Assembly (NCBI GenBank): GCA_046481675.1
Contig: JAWOJJ010000130.1
Span: 656-64,655, forward strand
Length of the DNA: 64,000 nucleotides
Source of the DNA: Bacteroidales bacterium
GTDB lineage: Bacteria > Bacteroidota > Bacteroidia > Bacteroidales > UBA10428
Reading direction: 5' to 3'
The translations under genes were made by a program, and so were the position numbers. Positions 948 to 58,443 of the stretch are shown piece by piece. The notes beneath the pieces are model-generated. The model had not been told where the DNA came from. It worked only from the letters and a program-made list of their open reading frames with translations, and did not search any database. The stretch's first letter is position 1; every line of letters begins with the position of its first letter.

Positions 948-1038
948 CGCTTAATAAAACACAAAACAATAGTGGCATAACAGTTATCATGCCAATTAAC
1001 AGATGCAATGATAGTATTTTTAGATGAAAAAGGGAAGG

Positions 1039-2187
1039 CTAACTCCAGACGCCGGGAATCTTTTCGCCACAGAATCCGCAATTCGCGGCTTTCATGTGAT
1101 TGGCAGTTACTGTATGGCCTTTTCTTTCAATAATCAGCTTTTTGCATCGCGGGCAATATGTGCTTATTTCTTCCGAACCGCCAATATTGCCAATATAAAC
1201 AAATCTGATGCCTGCCTGCTGCGCAATCAATTTTGCTTTCTGCAACACCTGAACCGGGGTGGGGGGCAGCTGACTTAATTTATACATGGGCTGAAAACGA
1301 AGGAAATGAAGTGGCGTATCCTGAAGTCCGCTCTGAACCAACCAGTCACACATTTTCTTAATCATATCCAAATTATCGCTCCAACCCGGTATTACCAGGT
1401 TTGAAATCTCCAGCCAAACTCCTTCTTCCCTGAATATCTTCAATGAATTCAACACCGGCTGTAATTCTCCTGCGTTGAGTTTCAGATAAGTTGTATTGTC
1501 AAATGATTTCAAATCGATGGTGGCCCCGTCAATTACCTTGCACAAATTCCGTAGCGGTTTTTCATTGATATACCCGTTTGAAACAAGGACATTTCTGATA
1601 CCCTTGCTGCGCGCAATTACCGATGTATCGTATACATATTCGTAAAAGGTTACCGGCTCCGAGTAAGTATAAGCAATGGAAATACAGTTGTACTTTGCAG
1701 TTTCCTCAACAACGCGTGGCGGCATCAGGTCGTAATTCCGGGTGTCTTTCGGACTTGCCTGTGAAATCGACCAGTTCTGGCAGTTCAGACACGCAAAATT
1801 ACAACCTGCCGTGGCAATGGAAAAGGATCTGGAACCGGGCAGAAAGTGATAAAAAGGTTTTTTCTCTATGGGGTCTACATGCATGGCACAGGGATTGCCA
1901 TAGGCAATGGAATAGAGCTTATCGCGGTAATTGACCCGGTTTCGACATAAGCTTGTATCTCCGGGTTTTAATATACACTCATTCGGGCATAGCTGGCATT
2001 TCAATCCCCGGGGTGTTACCTCGTAATAAAAGCACTCCTTGCTCCATTTCCAAAGGCTGTCGAGTTCAACCTCATCTACCCTGGGCACAATGGTGCTCAT
2101 GCCTTCCATTTTGTTCATACACGCTGCACCTGCAGCAGTCATAAAGGCACTTTTTACAAAGGTCCGTTTGCTGATTTTTTCATTCAT
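1039..2187 (-). CDS. amrS: AmmeMemoRadiSam system radical SAM enzyme with Tat-like N-terminal signal
   Basis: CNFACLNCQNW (CxxxCxxC) radical SAM cluster motif. N-terminal C-x2-C-x5-C region and a C-terminal CPRC...CGFCG zinc-ribbon-like tail, typical of AmrS. Start chosen at MNEKISKRTFVKSAFMTAAGAAC (2187); the track ORF extends to 2223. Sits in an operon with the Memo/AMMECR1 fusion. Confidence 0.85.
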   Translation of the reverse strand: MNEKISKRTFVKSAFMTAAGAACMNKMEGMSTIVPRVDEVELDSLWKWSKECFYYEVTPRGLKCQLCPNECILKPGDTSLCRNRVNYRDKLYSIAYGNPCAMHVDPIEKKPFYHFLPGSRSFSIATAGCNFACLNCQNWSISQASPKDTRNYDLMPPRVVEETAKYNCISIAYTYSEPVTFYEYVYDTSVIARSKGIRNVLVSNGYINEKPLRNLCKVIDGATIDLKSFDNTTYLKLNAGELQPVLNSLKIFREEGVWLEISNLVIPGWSDNLDMIKKMCDWLVQSGLQDTPLHFLRFQPMYKLSQLPPTPVQVLQKAKLIAQQAGIRFVYIGNIGGSEEISTYCPRCKKLIIERKGHTVTANHMKAANCGFCGEKIPGVWS

Positions 2188-2197
2188 TGTACATGCC

Positions 2198-4372
2198 CTA
2201 AGCAAAGTTAGCATTTTTACCAAATAGTAGCATAATCAGTAAACCGCCCAGTACTATTGCGGAAAGCAACATGCAGGTTGCCCACATCCCCAACAGGGGC
2301 AAAAACAACGTGGACGTCAATAAAATTCCCAATGCTGCTCCGGCCAGGTCAATGGCATAAAGATTTGATGCCGTTGTGATAAATGAACTATTGGCAAGTA
2401 CGGTAGCTCTGTTAAAGGCCAGTCCCGCCATAAAGGCGATAGCTGCAATGAGGATGAACAGGGCTCCCTGAACCGCCCATGAAAGCGCTCCGGAAGAACT
2501 GGTTGCCATAATAAAAACGGCCGGGATCAAAGCTACCAGCACCATTATTGCCACTTGTACCAGGGCATAATAGCGTTTGGCGTTGCTTCCCGGCTTGTTG
2601 CGAATCATGGCACCACAGGTAAGCCCAAGCATGTATAAAGCAATGATAAGCCCTGTCATCTGGTAAATGTTTCCAAATAGCGACTGGTATACCATCAGTA
2701 CAAGGAATTCCGATGATGTACCGGCAAAACCTGTTGTAAACACGCCTGCAGAATATGGATCTGTCTTTCGGGCTGCAAACAATACGAGTGAGGAAATAAT
2801 GATCAGTGATACCCATAAAATTGTCGTCGACTTGCTGCCCTCTGCCATGTAAAGCCAATACCTGATTTGGTGCAGGTAAGCAACCGGGGTCAGGTCGGTA
2901 TTGACTGCTGCAACGGGTTCTGTAATTTCTGCAAGCAGTTGCCGGTTTTTGTAAAGCAGCAATTCATCATCAATAGAGTAGGGGGTTACATAATCGTTTT
3001 CAAGGGTTGTTTGCTGCAATCGGTCCGCAATATTCAGTCCCAACGAATCATCAGAGGCCACGAAAAAATTCCGTCCACCGGGAATGATTTCAACACAGGC
3101 AAAGGCTTTTTGCAGTGTCTGAAATACAACCCGGTTTACCTCACGGGCTTCCGTGCTCATATAGTTTGCTGTTGAAGTCAGCGATATTGAGAAAATGCCG
3201 TGAGGAGTGAGCGCTCTTTTGGCCTGCCTGAAGAAATCAAGCGTGAAATAGCGGTTCATCTGCGCGTTTGAAGGGTCAGGTGAATTGATAATGATGACAT
3301 CATACAGCTCTGTTGAATTACTGATTCGCCGCCGGGCATCATGGGTATATATCTTCAAACCCTCAAAATCCGGTATGTTTGTGAACATTTTTTCTGCCTT
3401 AACAAGCCAGGGATCGATCTCCAGGTAGTGAAGTGTCTCAACCGAATTGTATTTGAATACCTGGGCCGATATGTCGGCAATTCCGCCCGAAACGATAAGA
3501 ACCTTCTCAGGAGCCTGATGTTGTAACAGGGCATAGTGAACAGCTTCTTCGGCATGATATGGGTTGTTCGATGAAAAAAGCAACAGGTTATTTCCGTAAA
3601 AATTAACCTGTGCGTTTGATTCGGTTACGGTGATATGCTGAAACGGGGTGTCGCGGATAAAAAGAATTCGCTCATTTTTGTAGTGCAACGATTTCAACCA
3701 CAAATCTGCCGGCAGCAAAAACAGAAGCACAGCTATAACTAAGACGCTTGCAAAGGCAATGGTTTTTTTAATTCTGTTTTGTATTCCCGGATGAAGTAAA
3801 CAGGCTGCAACAAAATTGCAAAACAGGGCCAGGGCAAGCACCTGAAATGTCCTGAATAAAAAGGCAAACAGCAGACTGAATAGAATTCCGGCCAGCATAC
3901 TGCCAACAGATTCCCAGCCATAAGCAAGGGATACGCAATTCGCATTCCTGCTTTCTGACAGCAATGAAGCCAGCTTTGCAAACAACAATCCGGTTACAAA
4001 GCAACCGGGCAGCAGAAATACCAGGCAATAAACCAGGGCAATGATTAACCCGCGCGTGGTGCCGGGAGGAAACAACAGGCTGTCAACCACACCGAGCAAC
4101 GCCACCACAATTACGGGAACAATTGCTTCCAGAACAAAGAGCCACGAAATCAGCAGATGTTTGTTGACATTGAGAGAAATGCGCCGGGCACATCCTGCCC
4201 CGGCTGCTGTCAACAGCATCCACAGGCAAAAAATAAATCCCACAATGAGTTCATTGCCCTGGAACAGGTTCAGCATTTCGCGGATCACAACAAGCTGAAC
4301 CAGTATGGACGTAAAACCGAGAATAAAAAGTGCGGCAATAATTCTTCGGGACAGCTTATTCTCCGAAAACAT
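2198..4372 (-). CDS. Fused MFS-like/spermidine synthase-like polytopic membrane protein
   Basis: 724 aa. Hydrophobic N-terminal block (about 7 TM by eye), a central aminopropyl/methyltransferase fold with VLIVSGGIAD...LEIDP (SpeE-like dcSAM/SAM-binding signature), and a hydrophobic C-terminal block (about 6-7 TM). Overlaps the upstream gene by 17 nt. Confidence 0.75.
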   Translation of the reverse strand: MFSENKLSRRIIAALFILGFTSILVQLVVIREMLNLFQGNELIVGFIFCLWMLLTAAGAGCARRISLNVNKHLLISWLFVLEAIVPVIVVALLGVVDSLLFPPGTTRGLIIALVYCLVFLLPGCFVTGLLFAKLASLLSESRNANCVSLAYGWESVGSMLAGILFSLLFAFLFRTFQVLALALFCNFVAACLLHPGIQNRIKKTIAFASVLVIAVLLFLLPADLWLKSLHYKNERILFIRDTPFQHITVTESNAQVNFYGNNLLLFSSNNPYHAEEAVHYALLQHQAPEKVLIVSGGIADISAQVFKYNSVETLHYLEIDPWLVKAEKMFTNIPDFEGLKIYTHDARRRISNSTELYDVIIINSPDPSNAQMNRYFTLDFFRQAKRALTPHGIFSISLTSTANYMSTEAREVNRVVFQTLQKAFACVEIIPGGRNFFVASDDSLGLNIADRLQQTTLENDYVTPYSIDDELLLYKNRQLLAEITEPVAAVNTDLTPVAYLHQIRYWLYMAEGSKSTTILWVSLIIISSLVLFAARKTDPYSAGVFTTGFAGTSSEFLVLMVYQSLFGNIYQMTGLIIALYMLGLTCGAMIRNKPGSNAKRYYALVQVAIMVLVALIPAVFIMATSSSGALSWAVQGALFILIAAIAFMAGLAFNRATVLANSSFITTASNLYAIDLAGAALGILLTSTLFLPLLGMWATCMLLSAIVLGGLLIMLLFGKNANFA

Positions 4373-5915
4373 ACGCTTCGTAGGTATATAAATCAGCTTT
4401 TTTCCATCCGTCCCAGCCTATTCCTGCCTTATCACGGGCACAATGACCGAGAAACTCCTCAACAGTCCAGTTTGTTTGACTGGCAACCTGCGGGAGGAAG
4501 GTGCCTCCCCGGTTTCCTTTCTTGATGTAGATCCCGTGCCTGCCCAACACAATTTCATCGGGTGATGCAATCCTTTTCATGGGAGTAAGCACGGAAATTT
4601 CAATATGCGCCTGCTCCAGTTCTTCTTTAGTGAGCTTTGAAAAACGGTAATCACGTGTGGCAGCCGAAACAGCCATTTCCTGAACAATTTTATATAACGG
4701 CTCCTCAGCGTCGAATCTTCCGATGCAGCCCCGCAATCTGCCGTCGATGGTGAGTGTCACAAAAGCCCCTGAGGGTGCCAGCATCTTTTGGGTAAAGCCT
4801 TCTGTTTTAACCGGGGGAATTTCATTGTTGTCAAGATATTGCCTGATGGTTGTCCGCGCCAGTTGCAGCATCTTCTTTTTTTCGTTATCAGTCAGCTTGT
4901 ATTCTGAATCGTCTGTTATAACTTGTTTCTCAGCTACCGGTTCCATAGTTACTACAATGGCATGATAGCCAACCACCCTGTCTTTATCACCCACCCGGGC
5001 ATCCCCGGAATTCATGTACCTGATTTTGTGGTATTGTGTACCGGGAATACTCTCGGTTATTTCCAGCAACGCAAGCGTGCTGGTCCATCCACAGATGCTG
5101 GTGGCCAGGTTTGAAATGGCTTTCGATTCGTTAAACTCAAGTATGTGCCTGAATGCTGCTGATGAATTCTTAACAATAGCATTGGCTGTTGCTTCATCAA
5201 CCCGGCAGGCGTCATCATATACCGGGTAATGCGAAAAATCGGTACTGATAACAAACAGGTTCTTCCCGTTAAAATAGGGTTTCAGTGCCTCGGCTATTTT
5301 TTTGATGCTGGCCGCCCTTTGTGTTCCAATGAGTATGGGAACGATCTGCAGGTTATCGCCATAAAGGTGTTGCAGGAACGGAAGTTGCACTTCCAGGCTG
5401 TGTTCCTGTGCATGAGCTTCCGGCATCGGCCGGAACACATCCGGATTCAGGGCAATCAGCTTTTGCGACAAAGGGACGTTTACTTTCACCGTTCCCGAGG
5501 GCATGATGAAATGGCCCTGGCTGTATAGTGCGGCGCCGTCATAACTGGCACGGTGACTCGATCCGATAAGAAAAACATTGTCGTATTGCGTTTCCCCGGA
5601 AAGCTGGTTAAAGGCCGAGGCAGCAACTACTCCCGAGTAAACATACCCTGCGTGTGGCGAAATTACAGCAACAACATGATTTAGTTTTTTGCCAGGGGTG
5701 GCCTCCGCAAAAAGCCTGCTTATCTCTTGCTCCAATTCAACCCGGTTACCCGGATAAAATGTTCCGGCTACGGCAGGTTTCCGGTTAATCAGGCTGTCGC
5801 TTTCCATGTTTGTAGTTTTTGCATCGGGCAATACATAATTCGGGTGGCGGGTGCTGCATTGTGCCCCAGGTAAAATCAGCATAAGGAATAACAATGTGGC
5901 AGTTCCGGGTTTCAT
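4356..5915 (-). CDS. amrB-amrA: AmmeMemoRadiSam protein B (Memo-like) fused to protein A (AMMECR1-like), with N-terminal signal peptide
   Basis: N-terminal half: AVAGTFYPG, SPHAGYVYSG, EHSLEVQLPFLQ, STDFSHY (Memo/AmrB motifs). C-terminal half: GAFVTLTIDGRLRGCIGRF and GGTFLPQV (AMMECR1/AmrA motifs). Starts with MKPGTATLLFLMLILPGAQC. Confidence 0.88.
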   Translation of the reverse strand: MKPGTATLLFLMLILPGAQCSTRHPNYVLPDAKTTNMESDSLINRKPAVAGTFYPGNRVELEQEISRLFAEATPGKKLNHVVAVISPHAGYVYSGVVAASAFNQLSGETQYDNVFLIGSSHRASYDGAALYSQGHFIMPSGTVKVNVPLSQKLIALNPDVFRPMPEAHAQEHSLEVQLPFLQHLYGDNLQIVPILIGTQRAASIKKIAEALKPYFNGKNLFVISTDFSHYPVYDDACRVDEATANAIVKNSSAAFRHILEFNESKAISNLATSICGWTSTLALLEITESIPGTQYHKIRYMNSGDARVGDKDRVVGYHAIVVTMEPVAEKQVITDDSEYKLTDNEKKKMLQLARTTIRQYLDNNEIPPVKTEGFTQKMLAPSGAFVTLTIDGRLRGCIGRFDAEEPLYKIVQEMAVSAATRDYRFSKLTKEELEQAHIEISVLTPMKRIASPDEIVLGRHGIYIKKGNRGGTFLPQVASQTNWTVEEFLGHCARDKAGIGWDGWKKADLYTYEAYVFGE

Positions 5916-6000
5916 CAGGTAACATCCAATTATTATTAAAATTACTTCAATAATCGTTAAAATTCAAGTAGTTTTTTATGCAATTTTGTCCCGGAAATCT

Positions 6001-6879
6001 ATGGATATGCAGAAGAAAGATGTAAGTTACCGGGTTGAGGCCAACGTACCGCTGATGCAGTACCTGCTGCAAACCCTCAGTGATAGAAGCAGGGACAATG
6101 TAAAATCGCTGTTGCGCAACAAACAGGTATGGGTTAATGGCAAAGCAGTGTCACAGTTCAATCACCCGCTTTTACCCGGTGATGAAGTAGAGATACGGCG
6201 GGTACGGAAAACCGATTTGCCCCCGGCTCATTTACTGAAAATAATTTATGAAGATGAACACTTAATTGTAATCGACAAAAAGTCGGGGTTGCTCTCCGTG
6301 TCAGATGGTCACGATCATGTTACTGCTTTTGGAATCATATCGGAATGGGTAAAACATGAAGACCCTCAAAACAGGATCTATTTGGTGCATCGGCTCGATC
6401 AGCATACCTCCGGTTTGCTCATGTTTGCAAAAAGCGAAGAAGTACAGAATATTTTCAGAAACGACTGGAAGAAATACATCACCGAACGAACCTACATAGC
6501 TATAGTGGAGGGACAGGTGAAAAAGGCAGAAGGGCAGGTTCGTTCATACCTGTTGGAAAACCAGGCGCTGGTTATGATTTCAGGTCAGGATCCCTCAAAA
6601 GGCAAATATGCCATAACCCGTTACAAAACCGTGAAAACCAACAGCAGGTACTCGCTGCTTCACGTTAACCTCGAAACCGGAAGGAAAAACCAGATCCGCG
6701 TTCACATGCAGGATATCGGGCACAGTGTTGCAGGCGACCGGAAATATGGGGCTAAAACCAGTCCTATTGGCCGCTTGAGCCTTCATGCCATGGTGCTGGC
6801 CTTTACACATCCGGTAACCAGCGAACCATTGAGGTTTGAGTCTGCTGCACCCCCGGAGTTTCTTCGGCTGTTTTCATAA
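6001..6879 (+). CDS. RluA-family 23S rRNA/tRNA pseudouridine synthase with N-terminal S4-like domain
   Basis: HRLDQHTSGLLMFAK catalytic Asp motif and GRKNQIRVH motif. The track ORF starts at TTG 5986; I prefer the first ATG at 6001. Confidence 0.9.
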   Translation: MDMQKKDVSYRVEANVPLMQYLLQTLSDRSRDNVKSLLRNKQVWVNGKAVSQFNHPLLPGDEVEIRRVRKTDLPPAHLLKIIYEDEHLIVIDKKSGLLSVSDGHDHVTAFGIISEWVKHEDPQNRIYLVHRLDQHTSGLLMFAKSEEVQNIFRNDWKKYITERTYIAIVEGQVKKAEGQVRSYLLENQALVMISGQDPSKGKYAITRYKTVKTNSRYSLLHVNLETGRKNQIRVHMQDIGHSVAGDRKYGAKTSPIGRLSLHAMVLAFTHPVTSEPLRFESAAPPEFLRLFS

Positions 6880-8844: not shown

Positions 8845-9942
8845 CTAATTAAGTGTTAGCTTCTCAATTGCTTTATCCAGAGGTAGGTCTTTGTGCATTA
8901 CTAAAGGTCCCCAATGATCCGGTACATAAAAATCCGGAGTCAATCCGATACCTTCAAGATACCTTCCTTTTGAATCAACCAGCAGACTTCCTTCAGGCGT
9001 ATAAACAACCTGGCCGCCTATGCGAAAACACCAACCATTAGGTAATAGTCTTTCGTTTACCGACGAAAAAGCACCGCAGGTCGTATCGCCAACAGTAAAT
9101 ACACCTTTCTGGCTTTTCATTCCCAAAATAAAATGCTCTGAAGAACTCGCCGTGTAACTGTTCATCAGGATAGCTATAGGTTTATTTTTTAAACAATCGG
9201 CGTGGGGTCGTATCCGATGTTCAAACATTTCTGAGAAATCATTGTGTGATGGGCCATTCCTGTATTTCGACTTCAAAAAAACTTGGGGCTCATTGGCAAA
9301 TCTGTTGAGCGTTTTTACGAATGATTCCGTATTACCGCCGCCATTAAACCTCAAATCAATGATAACCGCATCAAGCAACTGAAAATCATCAACGGCAGAC
9401 TGAATAAATGAGTCCGGAAAATGATCCAGACTGAACGAGGGGAGGTTGATGTAGCCAATTTTCTTCTGGTTCACATATACAGTGCCATAAAAGAACATCC
9501 AACCTTCAACTTCAACGGATGTATAGATGTTATTAAGATAAGATGCTCTTACTGTTATAAAATGCTTTCTGACATCATCCATCGATCGTGTGTAACTGTC
9601 AACATAAAAAGATTTATCACGCCGGTTCCACGATCGGAAAAAGGAACCACCGGAAGTTTTCAGGTCAGTGTGACCATCATTGATTTCGTGAAGCAAGCCG
9701 CACATAGCTCCAAATAGCTCGTTATCTGACGACGAATTGGTTACCCTGCTTCCATAAACTTGCTTTAAGGAGTCCCAGTTCAGGCTTTTCGCAGCCATGG
9801 CCCCATATCCAATATCAAATTCGTGCCAGAGTGTTTCAAAATTTCCCAAAGGGGTATTGGAGAATTCTGTGGTTAACAATGATTTCTCGCATCCCGCTAG
9901 CAAGATGTTGCAAAACATCAGTATGATTACTGCATATTTCAT
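8845..9942 (-). CDS. S41-family (tail-specific/C-terminal processing-like) peptidase, probable lipoprotein
   Basis: DLRFNGGGN and TASSSEHF region typical of peptidase S41. Start set at MKYAVIILMFCNILLAGC (lipobox-like LAGC). Its ATG overlaps the stop of the upstream gene (ATGA, 9939-9942). Confidence 0.8.
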   Translation of the reverse strand: MKYAVIILMFCNILLAGCEKSLLTTEFSNTPLGNFETLWHEFDIGYGAMAAKSLNWDSLKQVYGSRVTNSSSDNELFGAMCGLLHEINDGHTDLKTSGGSFFRSWNRRDKSFYVDSYTRSMDDVRKHFITVRASYLNNIYTSVEVEGWMFFYGTVYVNQKKIGYINLPSFSLDHFPDSFIQSAVDDFQLLDAVIIDLRFNGGGNTESFVKTLNRFANEPQVFLKSKYRNGPSHNDFSEMFEHRIRPHADCLKNKPIAILMNSYTASSSEHFILGMKSQKGVFTVGDTTCGAFSSVNERLLPNGWCFRIGGQVVYTPEGSLLVDSKGRYLEGIGLTPDFYVPDHWGPLVMHKDLPLDKAIEKLTLN

Positions 9943-10862
9943 TGCTGCTGGAATTTGTAAGTTATCCCTACCTGGTAAATGCCACTTACCAATCTTAAAT
10001 TTCTTGGAATTGCATCGTTTATATACCGGAAATTGTAACTGGCATTTATGCATAATTTGTCGCTAAGTTGATTGGTGTATAACAGATTCAGAAAAACACT
10101 TTGTAATGATCTAATCCCCTGTATGCGGGAATTAGATCTGATAAAATCCCATTTTTCATATTTTTCAAAATCCTGAGCAATTACATTTGAGTAGTTCGAC
10201 CTGCAGGTGTATGACAGTAACGATGTTGTGAATGAAAAACCAACCAGGTGCCGGCGCCACACATATTCGCTGTATATACCCGGAGCCAGCGTGCTCAACA
10301 ACAATTCAGGTGTCATCCCGTAATTGGTTACCAAATCGGCCGAGGTGAACCAGTTTAAAGCTGCATATATCGGCAAGCTTTTTCTGATGGTGATCAGATG
10401 AAAACAATGAAAACTGCTGGCTTCAAAATGCAGGTGTTTAATTACCCGCAGCCGGTTATCAGTTTCCAACGGATATTCATTTTCCTTGTTTCCATCAGGG
10501 TATCTTTTGAAAAGTGAAAAGCCCAGGCTGGTGGATGAAAGAATTCTCTTGCGTTTTTCAAATCCTATTGTGGTTATAAATCCGGTACCCGGATAAACCT
10601 GATTTGTATATAATTCATCAATGGAGGCATAGTTAATGAGCCCCGTTTCAATTTTTATTGCTTTGCCAGAATCCTGATCATTATCGGGCACTTGTTGGGC
10701 TGTCAGATTGTGTTCTCCATGGGTCAGGAGCACAAATGTTATTGTTCTTATAATGATTCTAAAGTGCTCGCGCATAAAACTACTCTGAATATATTGCCAG
10801 GTATTTTTGAGAGTTCCCTGAAAAAAAATGCTTTCGAATTTCTGTCTTTTATTAAACATCAA
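9939..10862 (-). CDS. Hypothetical protein, probable outer-membrane beta-barrel
   Basis: Long ORF with alternating hydrophobic pattern ending ...GITYKFQQQ (aromatic-rich C-terminus). An internal Met (MREHFRIIIRTITFVLL) may be the true start. No recognisable catalytic motif. Confidence 0.55.
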   Translation of the reverse strand: MMFNKRQKFESIFFQGTLKNTWQYIQSSFMREHFRIIIRTITFVLLTHGEHNLTAQQVPDNDQDSGKAIKIETGLINYASIDELYTNQVYPGTGFITTIGFEKRKRILSSTSLGFSLFKRYPDGNKENEYPLETDNRLRVIKHLHFEASSFHCFHLITIRKSLPIYAALNWFTSADLVTNYGMTPELLLSTLAPGIYSEYVWRRHLVGFSFTTSLLSYTCRSNYSNVIAQDFEKYEKWDFIRSNSRIQGIRSLQSVFLNLLYTNQLSDKLCINASYNFRYINDAIPRNLRLVSGIYQVGITYKFQQQ

Positions 10863-10869
10863 TAACTGC

Positions 10870-11361
10870 TTACAACGAACCCGTAAGTCGGATATGCCTG
10901 ATGATATCCCCTGATTTGATGAAAGTGCCGTTATGACAGCCGGTTACGTTACAAAATGTAATGGCGTCGTTAAAATCAAGCTCGGGTGTCAATCCGATTA
11001 CCACCATATCGGCACCTTCCCTGCAATTGCAGTTTACAAGCTTTTTAAAAGCTGTGCCGCAGTGCGGGCAAGATAATTCATCCTTTATCCCTTCCTTCAA
11101 CTCACCCGAAAGAACTTTTTTATCGAAATCACCTTCAATGGCCGAAATAACAAATTCTCCTTCCATCCCTTCGCGTTTGAAACCGATACGGAGGCCAGGA
11201 AAACCATTGATTTTATTTTTGGAATCGATAATGCTGCAACCATCCGGACAATAGGCATGATTGATAATGTATCTTACTTTGTCCTCCTCCTTGCGATTGG
11301 CAGCTTTCCTTTCGGTCAGGGGTATCAATAATCGTCCATCCTTATTATATTTCATGATCAA
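10870..11361 (-). CDS. Hypothetical cysteine-rich protein
   Basis: 163-aa ORF with paired Cys motifs (CPDGC, CPHC, CNC, CNVTGC). It is 8 nt upstream of the next gene, so probably first in a three-gene operon. Family not recognised. Confidence 0.55.
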   Translation of the reverse strand: MIMKYNKDGRLLIPLTERKAANRKEEDKVRYIINHAYCPDGCSIIDSKNKINGFPGLRIGFKREGMEGEFVISAIEGDFDKKVLSGELKEGIKDELSCPHCGTAFKKLVNCNCREGADMVVIGLTPELDFNDAITFCNVTGCHNGTFIKSGDIIRHIRLTGSL

Positions 11362-16488: not shown

Positions 16489-16490
16489 AG

Positions 16491-16563
16491 TGATCCAGCT
16501 GGGATTCGAACCCAGGACCCCATCCTTAAAAGGGATGTGCTCTACCTACTGAGCTACTGGATC
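16491..16563 (-). tRNA. tRNA-Lys (anticodon TTT)
   Basis: Minus strand folds by hand as GATCCAG-TA-GCTC-AGTAGGTA-GAGC-A-CATCC-CTTTTAA-GGATG-GGGTC-CTGGG-TTCGAAT-CCCAG-CTGGATC-A, a clean cloverleaf with anticodon loop C-T-TTT-A-A. Confidence 0.93.
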
Positions 16564-39107: not shown

Positions 39108-39497
39108 CAGCAGCAAACCGCTCCATCGCTACGTTCCGGTTTTCCGGAATGGGGAGGAAAGTCCGGACAACACAGAGCACCGCACTTCCGAAATGGAAGA
39201 TGTTCGTGAGGGCATAGTTACGGAGAAGAGAATGACCGCCCCGGTAAGGAATCTGTGGGTTTTACCTGGTAAAATCTGCATCAGTCCGAACCGGAGCAAG
39301 GGTGAGAAGGCAGGGTAAGAGCCTGCCAGTTATGATGGTGACATCATAAGCTGTCCGTCTTGCGGGTTGAAAGATCACGTATACCGGTGCTAAGGGTTGC
39401 TCGCCCGATACCGGGGGGTAGATCGATCAGACAAATGATGGGGATCCTGGTTCTGCAAGGAACCTGGAAACAGAATCCGGCTTACAGGTTTGCTGCT
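39108..39497 (+). ncRNA. rnpB: RNase P RNA, bacterial type A
   Basis: GAGGAAAGTCCGGAC (P4 5' strand), GGTAAGAGCCTGCC, ACAGAATCCGGCTTAC (P4 3' strand). The 5' CAGCAGCAAACC pairs with the 3' GGTTTGCTGCT (P1), followed by TTTTTATT. Confidence 0.93.
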
Positions 39498-39621
39498 TTT
39501 TATTGAAATATTGGCAGAGAATGCATAACTGTGGACTCTGATGCAATACAATTCATCTGAAAAGTACAACCCTTGTTGTTTATTTTCGTATTCAGATAAA
39601 TATTAGTAGTTTAACTACTTT

Positions 39622-49795: not shown

Positions 49796-49868
49796 CGGTC
49801 CGTAGCTCAGCTGGTAGAGCACGTGACTCTTAATCATGGGGTCGAGGGTTCGAGCCCCTCCGGACCGA
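49796..49868 (+). tRNA. tRNA-Lys (anticodon CTT)
   Basis: CGGTCCG-TA-GCTC-AGCTGGTA-GAGC-A-CGTGA-CTCTTAA-TCATG-GGGTC-GAGGG-TTCGAGC-CCCTC-CGGACCG-A, folded by hand. Confidence 0.92.
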
Positions 49869-49874
49869 CAAACA

Positions 49875-58217: not shown

Positions 58218-58289
58218 GCCTCTTTAGCTCAGCGGTAGAGCAGCGGTTTCGTAAACCGCAGGTCGGGGGTTCAAATCCCCTGAGAGGCT
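58218..58289 (+). tRNA. tRNA-Thr (anticodon CGT)
   Basis: GCCTCTT-TA-GCTC-AGCGGTA-GAGC-A-GCGGT-TTCGTAA-ACCGC-AGGTC-GGGGG-TTCAAAT-CCCCT-GAGAGGC-T. Confidence 0.9.
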
Positions 58290-58302
58290 CAAATTGAATA
58301 TT

Positions 58303-58375
58303 GCGGCAGTAGCTCAGTTGGTAGAGCGTGAGCTTCCCAAGCTCAAGGTCGTGGGTTCGAGACCCATTTGCCGCT
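58303..58375 (+). tRNA. tRNA-Gly (anticodon CCC)
   Basis: GCGGCAG-TA-GCTC-AGTTGGTA-GAGC-G-TGAGC-TTCCCAA-GCTCA-AGGTC-GTGGG-TTCGAGA-CCCAT-TTGCCGC-T. Confidence 0.9.
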
Positions 58376-58443
58376 CAGTTGGTAGCCCCGCCGGTGGCGG
58401 GGTCCCAAGCTCAAGGTCGTGGGTTCGAGACCCATTTGCCGCT
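58376..58443 (+). pseudogene. Partial tandem copy of tRNA-Gly(CCC) (D-loop fragment + 3' two-thirds), not a functional tRNA
   Basis: CAGTTGGTAG + CCCCGCCGGTGGCGGGG + TCCCAAGCTCAAGGTCGTGGGTTCGAGACCCATTTGCCGCT. The last 41 nt are identical to 58335-58375. It lacks the 5' acceptor strand and the anticodon-stem 5' strand. Confidence 0.8.

Follow-up and report, generated by a model that had tools for sequence, protein, structure and literature searches.

The closest described relatives of the genes reported here form the AmmeMemoRadiSam system, which comprises a Memo-family protein (AmrB), an AMMECR1-family protein (AmrA), and a radical S-adenosylmethionine (SAM) enzyme (AmrS). Conservation of this trio extends from archaea to humans, where MEMO1 and AMMECR1 have been tied to disease; no biochemistry has been assigned to it, and the classical system is described as soluble. 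Here, we analyzed an Amr operon in a 64,000-nucleotide stretch of a Bacteroidales bacterium (GenBank assembly GCA_046481675.1, contig JAWOJJ010000130.1, positions 656 to 64,655 of the forward strand; the whole stretch is hereafter “the window”). Three genes at window positions 1039-5915 (minus strand) encode, in order of transcription, an AmrB-AmrA fusion (gene 1), a membrane protein with an inserted spermidine synthase (SpeE)–fold domain (gene 2), and AmrS (gene 3). The likeness to AmmeMemoRadiSam is plain: The models TIGR04335, TIGR04336, and TIGR04337 all score above their curated cut-offs, the components are encoded together, and the same holds in related loci. The operon differs from the classical system in that AmrB and AmrA form one polypeptide with an export signal; in that AmrS carries a Tat (twin-arginine translocation)–type signal, a linker, and a clade-specific LWKWSKE segment outside the TIGR04337 model; and in that a fourth module, the SpeE-fold protein with 14 transmembrane (TM) helices, is conserved in the cassette. 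We consider it moderately probable that the operon specifies an envelope-located Amr variant whose catalytic modules would all be placed on the periplasmic side of the cytoplasmic membrane, a localization derived from conserved motifs, hydropathy, and the positive-inside rule.

The open reading frames (ORFs) and junctions proved to be as the initial annotation had described them, that is, three tightly packed minus-strand genes, and all the motifs that it quoted were found; the observation is confirmed as real, with signals well beyond chance. Gene 1 (4356..5915) encodes 519 aa, gene 2 (2198..4372) encodes 724 aa, and AmrS (1039..2187) has 382 aa when counted from the ATG at 2187, all on the minus strand. 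Reading the sequence directly, we found a 17-nt overlap between gene 1 and gene 2 (ATG at 4372, TAA at 4356-4358) and a 10-nt spacer between the gene 2 stop codon (TAG at 2198-2200) and the AmrS start at 2187. The three genes are a single operon, in which the overlap and the short spacer point to translational coupling of gene 2 to both of its neighbors.

Gene 1 had been read as one polypeptide with Memo-like motifs followed by AMMECR1-like ones, and profile searches bore this out. The AmrB part, a Memo domain at aa 45-322 (4950..5783, minus strand), scored 233.8 bits against TIGR04336 (cut-off 26) and 180.9 bits against PF01875 (Memo), while the AmrA part at aa 348-517 (4365..4874, minus strand) scored 169.7 bits against TIGR04335 (cut-off 99) and 172.1 bits against PF01871 (AMMECR1). 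The first 20 residues, MKPGTATLLFLMLILPGAQC (5856..5915, minus strand), form an export signal with a terminal Cys, compatible with a lipoprotein-like signal or a signal peptidase I site, and a polar linker of ~25 aa separates this signal from the Memo domain. A strongly hydrophobic N-terminal signal, in most cases followed by a Cys, is present in 81 of the 120 best AmrB-AmrA homologs, and the remaining ~39 entries are mostly annotated to start at a conserved internal Met that directly precedes the Memo domain. The signal also occurs at every metagenomic locus with a readable upstream frame (39 of 39). These loci come from a set of 80 that we fetched with an AmrS alignment, so the set is biased toward the Tat-type AmrS clade and not toward classical signal-less systems.

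The window signal ends in …PGAQC and those of close relatives in …TSC or …AGC, such that the Cys is conserved within the sub-clade; the AmrB-AmrA signals of other orthologs end in A/S-x-A/S|Q and have no Cys. Compared with the lipobox [LVI]-[ASTVI]-[GAS]-C, the window reads P-G-A-Q-C, with a noncanonical Q at −1, a position that holds S, Q, N, or G across the family; the AmrB-AmrA protein of locus L087 has the canonical lipobox I-S-G-C. A lipoprotein is a likely, if tentative, reading of the window product, whose lipobox is noncanonical. In Bacteroidota, acidic residues after the lipoprotein Cys mark surface export. As such residues follow the Cys in only 1 of 70 AmrB-AmrA signals, we take a periplasm-facing AmrB-AmrA as the default. 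Of the Sec-type signal proposed in the initial annotation, the export function stands on the homolog and locus counts, whereas its plain Sec type is less sure, as the conserved Cys may instead denote a lipoprotein signal.

For the N terminus of AmrS, the nearest described counterparts are iron-sulfur (Fe-S) proteins exported by Tat, such as hydrogenase small subunits, NapG- and HybA-type ferredoxins, and Rieske proteins with natural KR signals. AmrS resembles these in its S-x-R-x-F-[ILV]-K motif, its short Gly/Ala-rich hydrophobic region (h-region), its cofactor-bearing passenger, and the adjacency of tatAC in two lineages; it differs in that the passenger is a radical SAM enzyme that needs SAM and electrons and in that KR mostly replaces RR. 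The enzyme itself scored 334.8 bits against TIGR04337 (cut-off 220), a model that begins only at residue 59 of the 382-aa protein (residue 71 of the 394-aa ORF that was scanned). Its radical SAM cluster motif CNFACLNC (a CxxxCxxC motif; C129, C133, and C136; 1780..1803, minus strand) is invariant in the AmrS alignment, as are the auxiliary Cys motifs, and every SAM- and cluster-binding residue is kept. Ahead of the enzyme lie a Tat-type signal peptide at aa 1-24, MNEKISKRTFVKSAFMTAAGAACM, with KR in place of RR (2116..2187), a variable linker at aa 25-44 (2056..2115), and the conserved mature N terminus LWKWSKE at aa 45-51 (window 2035-2055), all on the minus strand.

The extension is a property of the clade. 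Among the best 120 AmrS homologs (59-92% identity, 84-98% query coverage, mostly 375-392 aa), 113 show, in their first 35 residues, the motif x-[KR]-R-x-F-[ILVM]-x, with KR in 111 and RR in 2. S, N, D, or T precedes the pair, and 106 homologs end the motif in K or R; the seven without the motif start inside the h-region and are apparently truncated gene calls. The same N terminus recurs in most of the 80 metagenomic loci. The window protein reads S-K-R-T-F-V-K and so lacks the two arginines of the strict S/T-R-R-x-F-L-K consensus, and true RR pairs occur at the same position in orthologs: SRREFLK in L039, L052, L050, and L080, RREFIR in L075, RRRF in L016, L028, and L041, and further RR orthologs in L024 and L091. 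The Tat-like KR extension noticed in the initial annotation is thus a conserved feature.

The h-region that follows the motif is Tat-like as well. Across 186 sequences, it has a median of 13 uncharged residues [interquartile range (IQR) 12-16], a mean Kyte-Doolittle value of 1.3, and a composition of 21% Gly and 14% Ala, and only 3.8% of the N termini contain any 19-residue window at or above 1.6. Within the same operons, the best 12-residue hydropathy window was 2.57 for the AmrB-AmrA signals versus 1.68 for AmrS. Because it is short and weakly hydrophobic, with so few sequences reaching the TM threshold, we read this region as a Tat-style h-region and not as a membrane anchor; its N-terminal position on a cofactor protein with invariant Cys clusters is likewise a Tat-type feature. 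In an AlphaFold2 model of AmrS, residues 7-24 form a detached helix with a predicted local distance difference test score (pLDDT) of ~60, residues 19-42 fall below 50, and the confident core begins at about residue 45, which indicates that the first 44 residues are an appendage outside the fold. From the motif to WKWS, the spacing varies between 22 and 41 residues. W46, K47, W48, S49, and E51 of LWKWSKE are invariant in the Tat-type clade, the segment lies outside TIGR04337 and is absent from the AmrS proteins of L087 and L088, and a docking role is conceivable for it. Because many AmrS h-regions have a Cys close to their end, we considered a lipobox there; we rejected it, as V, I, or F mostly occupies the −1 position and not all sequences have the Cys.

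These N termini would lose their meaning if the signals were annotation artefacts and the true starts lay downstream, at Met24, Met27, or Met30 of AmrS and at the Met before the Memo domain of AmrB-AmrA, making both proteins cytoplasmic. Database entries called from internal Mets do exist (7 of 120 for AmrS and ~39 of 120 for AmrB-AmrA), and the window AmrS has three Mets directly after its h-region. Against such a shift, the motif and h-region are conserved at the amino acid level among orthologs of 54-92% identity, all 39 readable upstream frames of AmrB encode the signal, the AmrS frame and motif are intact in close relatives, and the ATG at 2187 lies only 10 nt past the gene 2 stop codon; synonymous and nonsynonymous codon counts against close relatives were too few to inform on their own. 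Because homologs of ~382 aa begin with M..[S/N/D/T]KRxF[ILV][KR], we place the AmrS start at ATG 2187 (MNEKISKRTFVK), which makes the TTG at 2223 unnecessary and sets the start upstream of the signal, as the initial annotation had supposed. We regard misplaced starts as an extremely improbable explanation of the signals.

Gene 2, the fourth module, compares with three described families. With SpeE (Thermus thermophilus, 1uir/3anx), it shares the fold over the whole soluble domain and keeps E-x3-H, the GG loop, the ribose Glu, and the adenine Asp; with PRK03612, it shares a homologous 7-TM N-terminal block; and with NF037959, it shares the combination of a TM block and a SpeE-like domain. It differs from SpeE and PRK03612 in having I/V/L for the acid of GGG(D/E)G, Asn for the catalytic Asp (157 of 218 homologs), the motifs N373-R374 and N491-x-D493-x-x-P496, a second 7-TM block after the domain, a predicted periplasmic location of that domain, and scores below cut-off; from NF037959, it differs in its below-cut-off score, in the lack of a Pfam MFS_1 (major facilitator superfamily, MFS) match on the TM blocks, and in a 6+1 / domain / 1+6 layout. 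A database entry that is 100% identical (P0121) is labeled “MAG: methyltransferase [Bacteroidales bacterium]” (MAG, metagenome-assembled genome).

The architecture of the protein, recognized in the initial annotation as a TM block, a spermidine synthase–fold core, and a second TM block, was recovered by several methods. Pfam Spermine_synth (PF01564) matched aa 275-439, between the hydrophobic blocks, at 70.6 bits. The SpeE-fold domain as a whole (aa 225-510; 2843..3700, minus strand) was delimited by hmmsearch against Protein Data Bank sequences (3anx, E=1.5e-38, profile positions 225-495), Foldseek (1uir, TMt 0.71), column statistics, and topology. The AlphaFold2 model (pLDDT 87.9; predicted template modeling score, pTM, 0.87), together with hydropathy, gave seven helices at aa 2-219, an alpha/beta domain at aa 235-483, and a helical bundle at aa 514-717. 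The first block, TM1-TM7 (aa 10-222; 3707..4345, minus strand), consists of a 6-TM repeat plus the extra helix TM7, and the second, TM8-TM14 (aa 514-719; 2216..2833, minus strand), of the extra helix TM8 plus another 6-TM repeat. Since aa 9-193 are homologous to aa 538-714 (hhalign 98.6%, E=1e-15), TM1-6 and TM9-14 are parallel repeats and TM7-domain-TM8 is an inserted hairpin. Summed over the loops of 218 homologs, Lys and Arg residues number 16.4 on the N-terminal side and 5.4 on the other, of which 3.4 come from the flanks of the large domain; by the positive-inside rule, this suggests cytoplasmic termini and a periplasmic SpeE-like domain. The internal 6-TM repeat and the predicted N-in/C-in orientation recall a 14-TM MFS-type layout, from which we infer a transporter-like character. 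The top 50 Foldseek matches are all SpeE domains and leave the TM part unclassified, and the sole MFS_1 match in the data set is a weak one (E=0.0012) in the distant relative P0202.

Residue conservation in the domain separates binding from catalysis. The adenosyl-binding residues are kept in the family (E318 in 203 of 218 sequences, with Asp in 13 more; D345 in 215 of 218; the GG loop; E275; and H279). The acid of GGG(D/E)G, through which SpeE binds the aminopropyl amine of decarboxylated SAM (dcSAM), is lost in gene 2, where position 298 is Ile in 95, Val in 38, and Leu in 33 of the 218 sequences (SGGIAD in the window), and the catalytic Asp of D-S-T-D-P, position 363, is Asn in 157 and Asp in only 21 (NSPDP in the window), while N373-R374 and N491-x-D493-x-x-P496 are new invariant motifs of the family. 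The domain probably binds an adenosyl compound, and, judged by these substitutions, it is not a spermidine synthase. The SAM/dcSAM-fold partner proposed in the initial annotation is thereby retained in its adenosyl-binding half and loses its aminopropyltransferase half. The “fused MFS/spermidine synthase” assignment also fails by score, with 31.7 bits against the NF037959 cut-off of 40, and the equivalog models were missed by far (TIGR00417, 78.7 versus 249.55; PRK00811, 91.2 versus 260; PRK03612, 136.5 versus 472).

Gene 2 could still be an ordinary membrane-bound polyamine aminopropyltransferase or polyamine transporter of the PRK03612 or “fused MFS/spermidine synthase” type that has no link to the amr genes. 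SpeE homology does extend over the entire soluble domain, PRK03612 is matched by 50 of 50 family members and NF037959 by 44 of 50 (E<=1e-3), and one homolog, at L090, has no amr genes within 7 kb. The low scores against the equivalogs and NF037959, the family-wide replacement of the catalytic Asp and of the acid that binds the dcSAM amine, and the translational coupling through the 17-nt overlap and 10-nt spacer argue against this, and so does the gene neighborhood. Of the 59 loci that are informative for its position, 55 have gene 2 in the fetched flank, and at 51 it lies within 1 kb of AmrS. With BA denoting AmrB-AmrA, g2 gene 2, and S AmrS, the arrangement is BA > g2 > S at 26 loci, a divergent BA followed by g2 > S at 8, BA > S > g2 at 4, and g2 > S > BA at 1. 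As the gene order varies, the linkage appears functional rather than merely inherited, and it persists down to 22-28% identity (L089 and L091). Polyamine metabolism unconnected to Amr is accordingly a very unlikely role for gene 2. The membrane gene had been described as interrupting the Amr set; it is instead a conserved member of the cassette, and its expected co-occurrence with amr genes in relatives was found.

Wider searches agree with this picture. On long contigs, the neighborhoods of two distant AmrS homologs repeat the order Memo-AMMECR1, Spermine_synth membrane protein, and radical SAM enzyme, with unrelated flanks. An exhaustive search for the gene 2 family returned 8,235 representatives at E<=1e-3 and 2,824 at E<=1e-30; a single-protein query with gene 2 against genome contigs yielded just three close relatives, all Bacteroidales MAGs. 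No further conserved neighbor genes emerged from the loci, the top clusters being antisense-ORF artefacts or housekeeping genes present in at most eight loci. At L023, one of the four loci that lack gene 2, a gene for a PEMT/ICMT-type membrane methyltransferase (L023:3178-3627) lies directly 5′ of a Tat-type AmrS; its product may be an alternative SAM-using membrane partner.

Tat genes themselves adjoin the Amr cassette at two loci. At L050:11457-12503 and L080:10732-11627, tatC (PF00902, 194.6 bits) and tatA lie directly beside the cassette and converge on it, and in both cases AmrS carries a canonical RR signal. The two loci are deeply diverged: Their GC contents are 33.5% and 42.9%, they share no detectable nucleotide similarity, and their proteins are 62% (AmrS), 45% (AmrB-AmrA), and 37.5% (TatC) identical. 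The arrangement resembles that of tat genes placed beside a dedicated substrate, as in the tatAd/Cd-phoD genes of Bacillus subtilis. AmrS is the only protein with a Tat motif in these cassettes, so AmrS being a genuine Tat substrate would explain the linkage. Within the 64-kb window, tatA and tatC were not found, which is uninformative either way. L050 also has an AlaX-like gene (tRNA_SAD / alanyl-tRNA editing domain; L050:9158-9937) between AmrS and AmrB-AmrA. Overall, the idea that the Amr set is targeted to the envelope and has a SpeE-fold membrane partner of its own gains from the conservation of both signals in ~200 orthologs, from synteny, and from the tatAC adjacency, and the predicted compartments of the SpeE-like core and the Amr proteins agree, all being periplasmic by the positive-inside rule and signal type.

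More distant relatives of gene 2 carry additional modules. Of 218 homologs, 57 have an extra N-terminal module of ~120 aa (long forms, e.g., P0132, P0137, and P0160) with three TM helices and four conserved His residues (HRKxWN … WHVxFGI..H..WH..YY). Its database matches are sub-threshold only and all to haem-b membrane families (Ferric_reduct, 2.2e-4; Cytochrom_B561; Ni_hydr_CYTB; DUF4405), so it may be a cytochrome b–like electron module. Two gene-2-like proteins within Amr cassettes, P0202 (L087:8001-11696) and P0204 (L088:3381-6932), end in FMN_bind and Fer4_5 domains with CX3CP motifs. This is the architecture of NosR and NapH, which carries electrons to periplasmic enzymes, and the likeness to NosR/NapH donors and DsbD/CcdA shuttles, through such fusions or an adjacent DsbD_2 gene, exists via relatives only, as the window protein has no such modules. 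At L087 and L088, AmrB-AmrA is exported by signal type (lipobox ISGC in L087, a TM anchor in L088), and the SpeE-like domains have lost the Gly loop and the ribose Glu. The L087 cassette is preceded upstream by genes for a YcaO protein, an ArsP permease, and a mechanosensitive channel.

Two further loci vary the theme. L089:6485-11563 encodes a nitroreductase, a gene 2 homolog (28% identity), a stand-alone AMMECR1 protein with a Sec signal, AmrS, and a DsbD_2 shuttle, with no Memo gene within the fetched view. L091 encodes a gene 2 homolog (22% identity), a Memo protein with a Sec signal, a signal-less AMMECR1 protein, and an AmrS that starts MKRRLFMK; the last third of its gene-2-like ORF (L091:7001-8998) is His/Arg-rich nonsense, probably from an assembly frameshift in the 3.98-Mb contig. 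In the loci examined, a gene-2-like protein beside amr genes was always accompanied by at least one Amr protein with an export signal, and the relatives show transmembrane redox modules to have been recruited repeatedly to Amr cassettes.

Several of these findings weigh against placing all modules in the periplasm. The AmrS proteins of L087 and L088 have no signal although their AmrB-AmrA partners are exported, so AmrS can work from the cytoplasm in related cassettes and a periplasmic AmrS would not be universal (in these two examples, the missing signal coincides with the loss of adenosyl-binding residues in the periplasmic domain), and the AmrS N terminus of L089 is hydrophobic but not of Tat type. 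The KR pair is near-invariant in the Bacteroidota clade (111 versus 2 RR), as might be expected of a weakened or repurposed signal. The window gene 2 is a short form that lacks both the four-His N-terminal module and any other redox module, and Pfam found neither MFS nor another family on its isolated TM blocks. To our knowledge, moreover, neither SAM nor low-potential reductants are known in the periplasm.

Signal-less AmrS proteins paired with an exported AmrB-AmrA and a gene-2-like protein at L087 and L088, and the near-invariant KR, would also fit a division between compartments in which AmrS stays at the cytoplasmic face and its degenerate KR Tat peptide serves only as a tether to the membrane, TatBC, or gene 2. 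There, AmrS would modify either a precursor that gene 2 passes on to the periplasmic SpeE-like domain and AmrB-AmrA, or the AmrB-AmrA precursor before its Sec export, and reductant as well as the SAM that its invariant SAM-binding and cluster residues call for would be at hand. Such a tether is hard to reconcile with an h-region too short and too weakly hydrophobic for a stable anchor (3.8% at the TM threshold), with true RR variants at the same position, with tatAC genes adjoining the cassette in two diverged lineages, and with the export competence of KR signals, known from Salmonella TtrB and the chloroplast Rieske protein. Maturation by radical SAM enzymes before export has a precedent in the anaerobic sulfatase-maturing enzymes. 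A further one is the maturation of a periplasm-bound protein by radical SAM enzymes (HXS), the location of those enzymes themselves not being assigned in that study (PMC13128918). We judge retention of AmrS in the cytoplasm unlikely, and serious enough to be kept in view.

If the Amr modules are indeed periplasmic, as we prefer to read them, then export, topology, cofactor supply, and substrate could be connected as follows. AmrB-AmrA would be exported via its hydrophobic Sec-type signal, possibly as a lipoprotein, with the polar linker serving as a tether. AmrS would fold and receive its Fe-S clusters in the cytoplasm before Tat export through the KR-type signal. The TM7-domain-TM8 hairpin of gene 2 would display an adenosyl-binding, non-aminopropyltransferase SpeE fold in the periplasm, and the protein would couple the cytoplasm to the periplasmic enzymes by moving a small molecule (SAM or a substrate) across the membrane, with the adenosyl ligand held by the periplasmic domain. 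AmrS could then act by radical chemistry on a substrate associated with the envelope or membrane, and Memo/AMMECR1 would process the result. Because all SAM- and cluster-binding residues are kept, an exported AmrS would need SAM and low-potential electrons in the periplasm. For the SAM, the transporter-like repeats and adenosyl-binding domain of gene 2 are natural candidates, hypothetical as this delivery is; for the electrons, the redox fusions, seen in relatives only, suggest a recurring requirement for delivery to the periplasmic side, which for the window protein is a conjecture. The full scheme, namely, an extracytoplasmic radical SAM enzyme AmrS with SAM exported and presented by gene 2, electrons supplied via fused modules in sister lineages, and an envelope component (lipid, isoprenoid, glycan, or protein) as the modified target, we put forward tentatively, as a possibility that is open to considerable doubt.

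The Amr trio itself is known; the envelope-targeted variant with a Tat-type AmrS and a membrane partner is new with respect to the literature searched. That literature search returned no exported Amr proteins, no Tat-dependent radical SAM enzyme, and no description of this membrane family, and the work of Burroughs et al. 2019 was outside its reach. Novelty is tempered by that work, reportedly a comparative study of Memo-AMMECR1-radical SAM contexts, which may already mention parts of the cassette and reportedly links Memo to nucleotide-base and isoprenoid modification.

The surroundings of the operon are those of a chromosome. Upstream of gene 1, a 70-nt divergent intergenic region (5916..5985), the presumed promoter region of the minus-strand operon, separates it from a divergent gene for an RluA-type pseudouridine synthase (5986-6879); a promoter search found only a weak sigma-70–like match at 5960-5932, which is not above shuffled expectation. 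Downstream, a terminator-like hairpin followed by a T-rich tail (973..994, minus strand) lies 45 nt 3′ of the AmrS stop codon, and the next gene, also on the minus strand, extends from 950 past the left edge of the window and encodes an unrelated secreted protein. The window also contains an RNase P RNA gene (class A, 187.6 bits; 39110-39500, plus strand) and four tRNA genes, Lys-ttt, Lys-ctt, Thr-cgt, and Gly-ccc [16490-16563 (minus strand) and 49796-49869, 58218-58290, and 58303-58376 (plus strand)], which indicate a chromosomal context for the operon. Two minus-strand ORFs at 9939-10862 and 10870-11361 have no Pfam match; the latter encodes a Cys-rich product (CPDGC … CPHCG … CNC … C), conceivably a small metal-binding protein.

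The envelope variant is widespread, as the 2,824 representative clusters of its membrane partner indicate, and its cassette links the Amr system with a membrane partner and with one compartment, namely, the outer face of the inner membrane, and thereby directs attention to envelope or membrane substrates. The old functional question on the Amr proteins thus becomes open to experiment. If AmrS is exported, then radical SAM chemistry would, contrary to assumption, not be confined to the cytoplasm, and SAM and low-potential electrons would have to be delivered to the periplasm. If, in addition, gene 2 supplies the SAM to an extracytoplasmic AmrS, then the cassette would be the first case both of an extracytoplasmic radical SAM pathway and of SAM being used in the periplasm.

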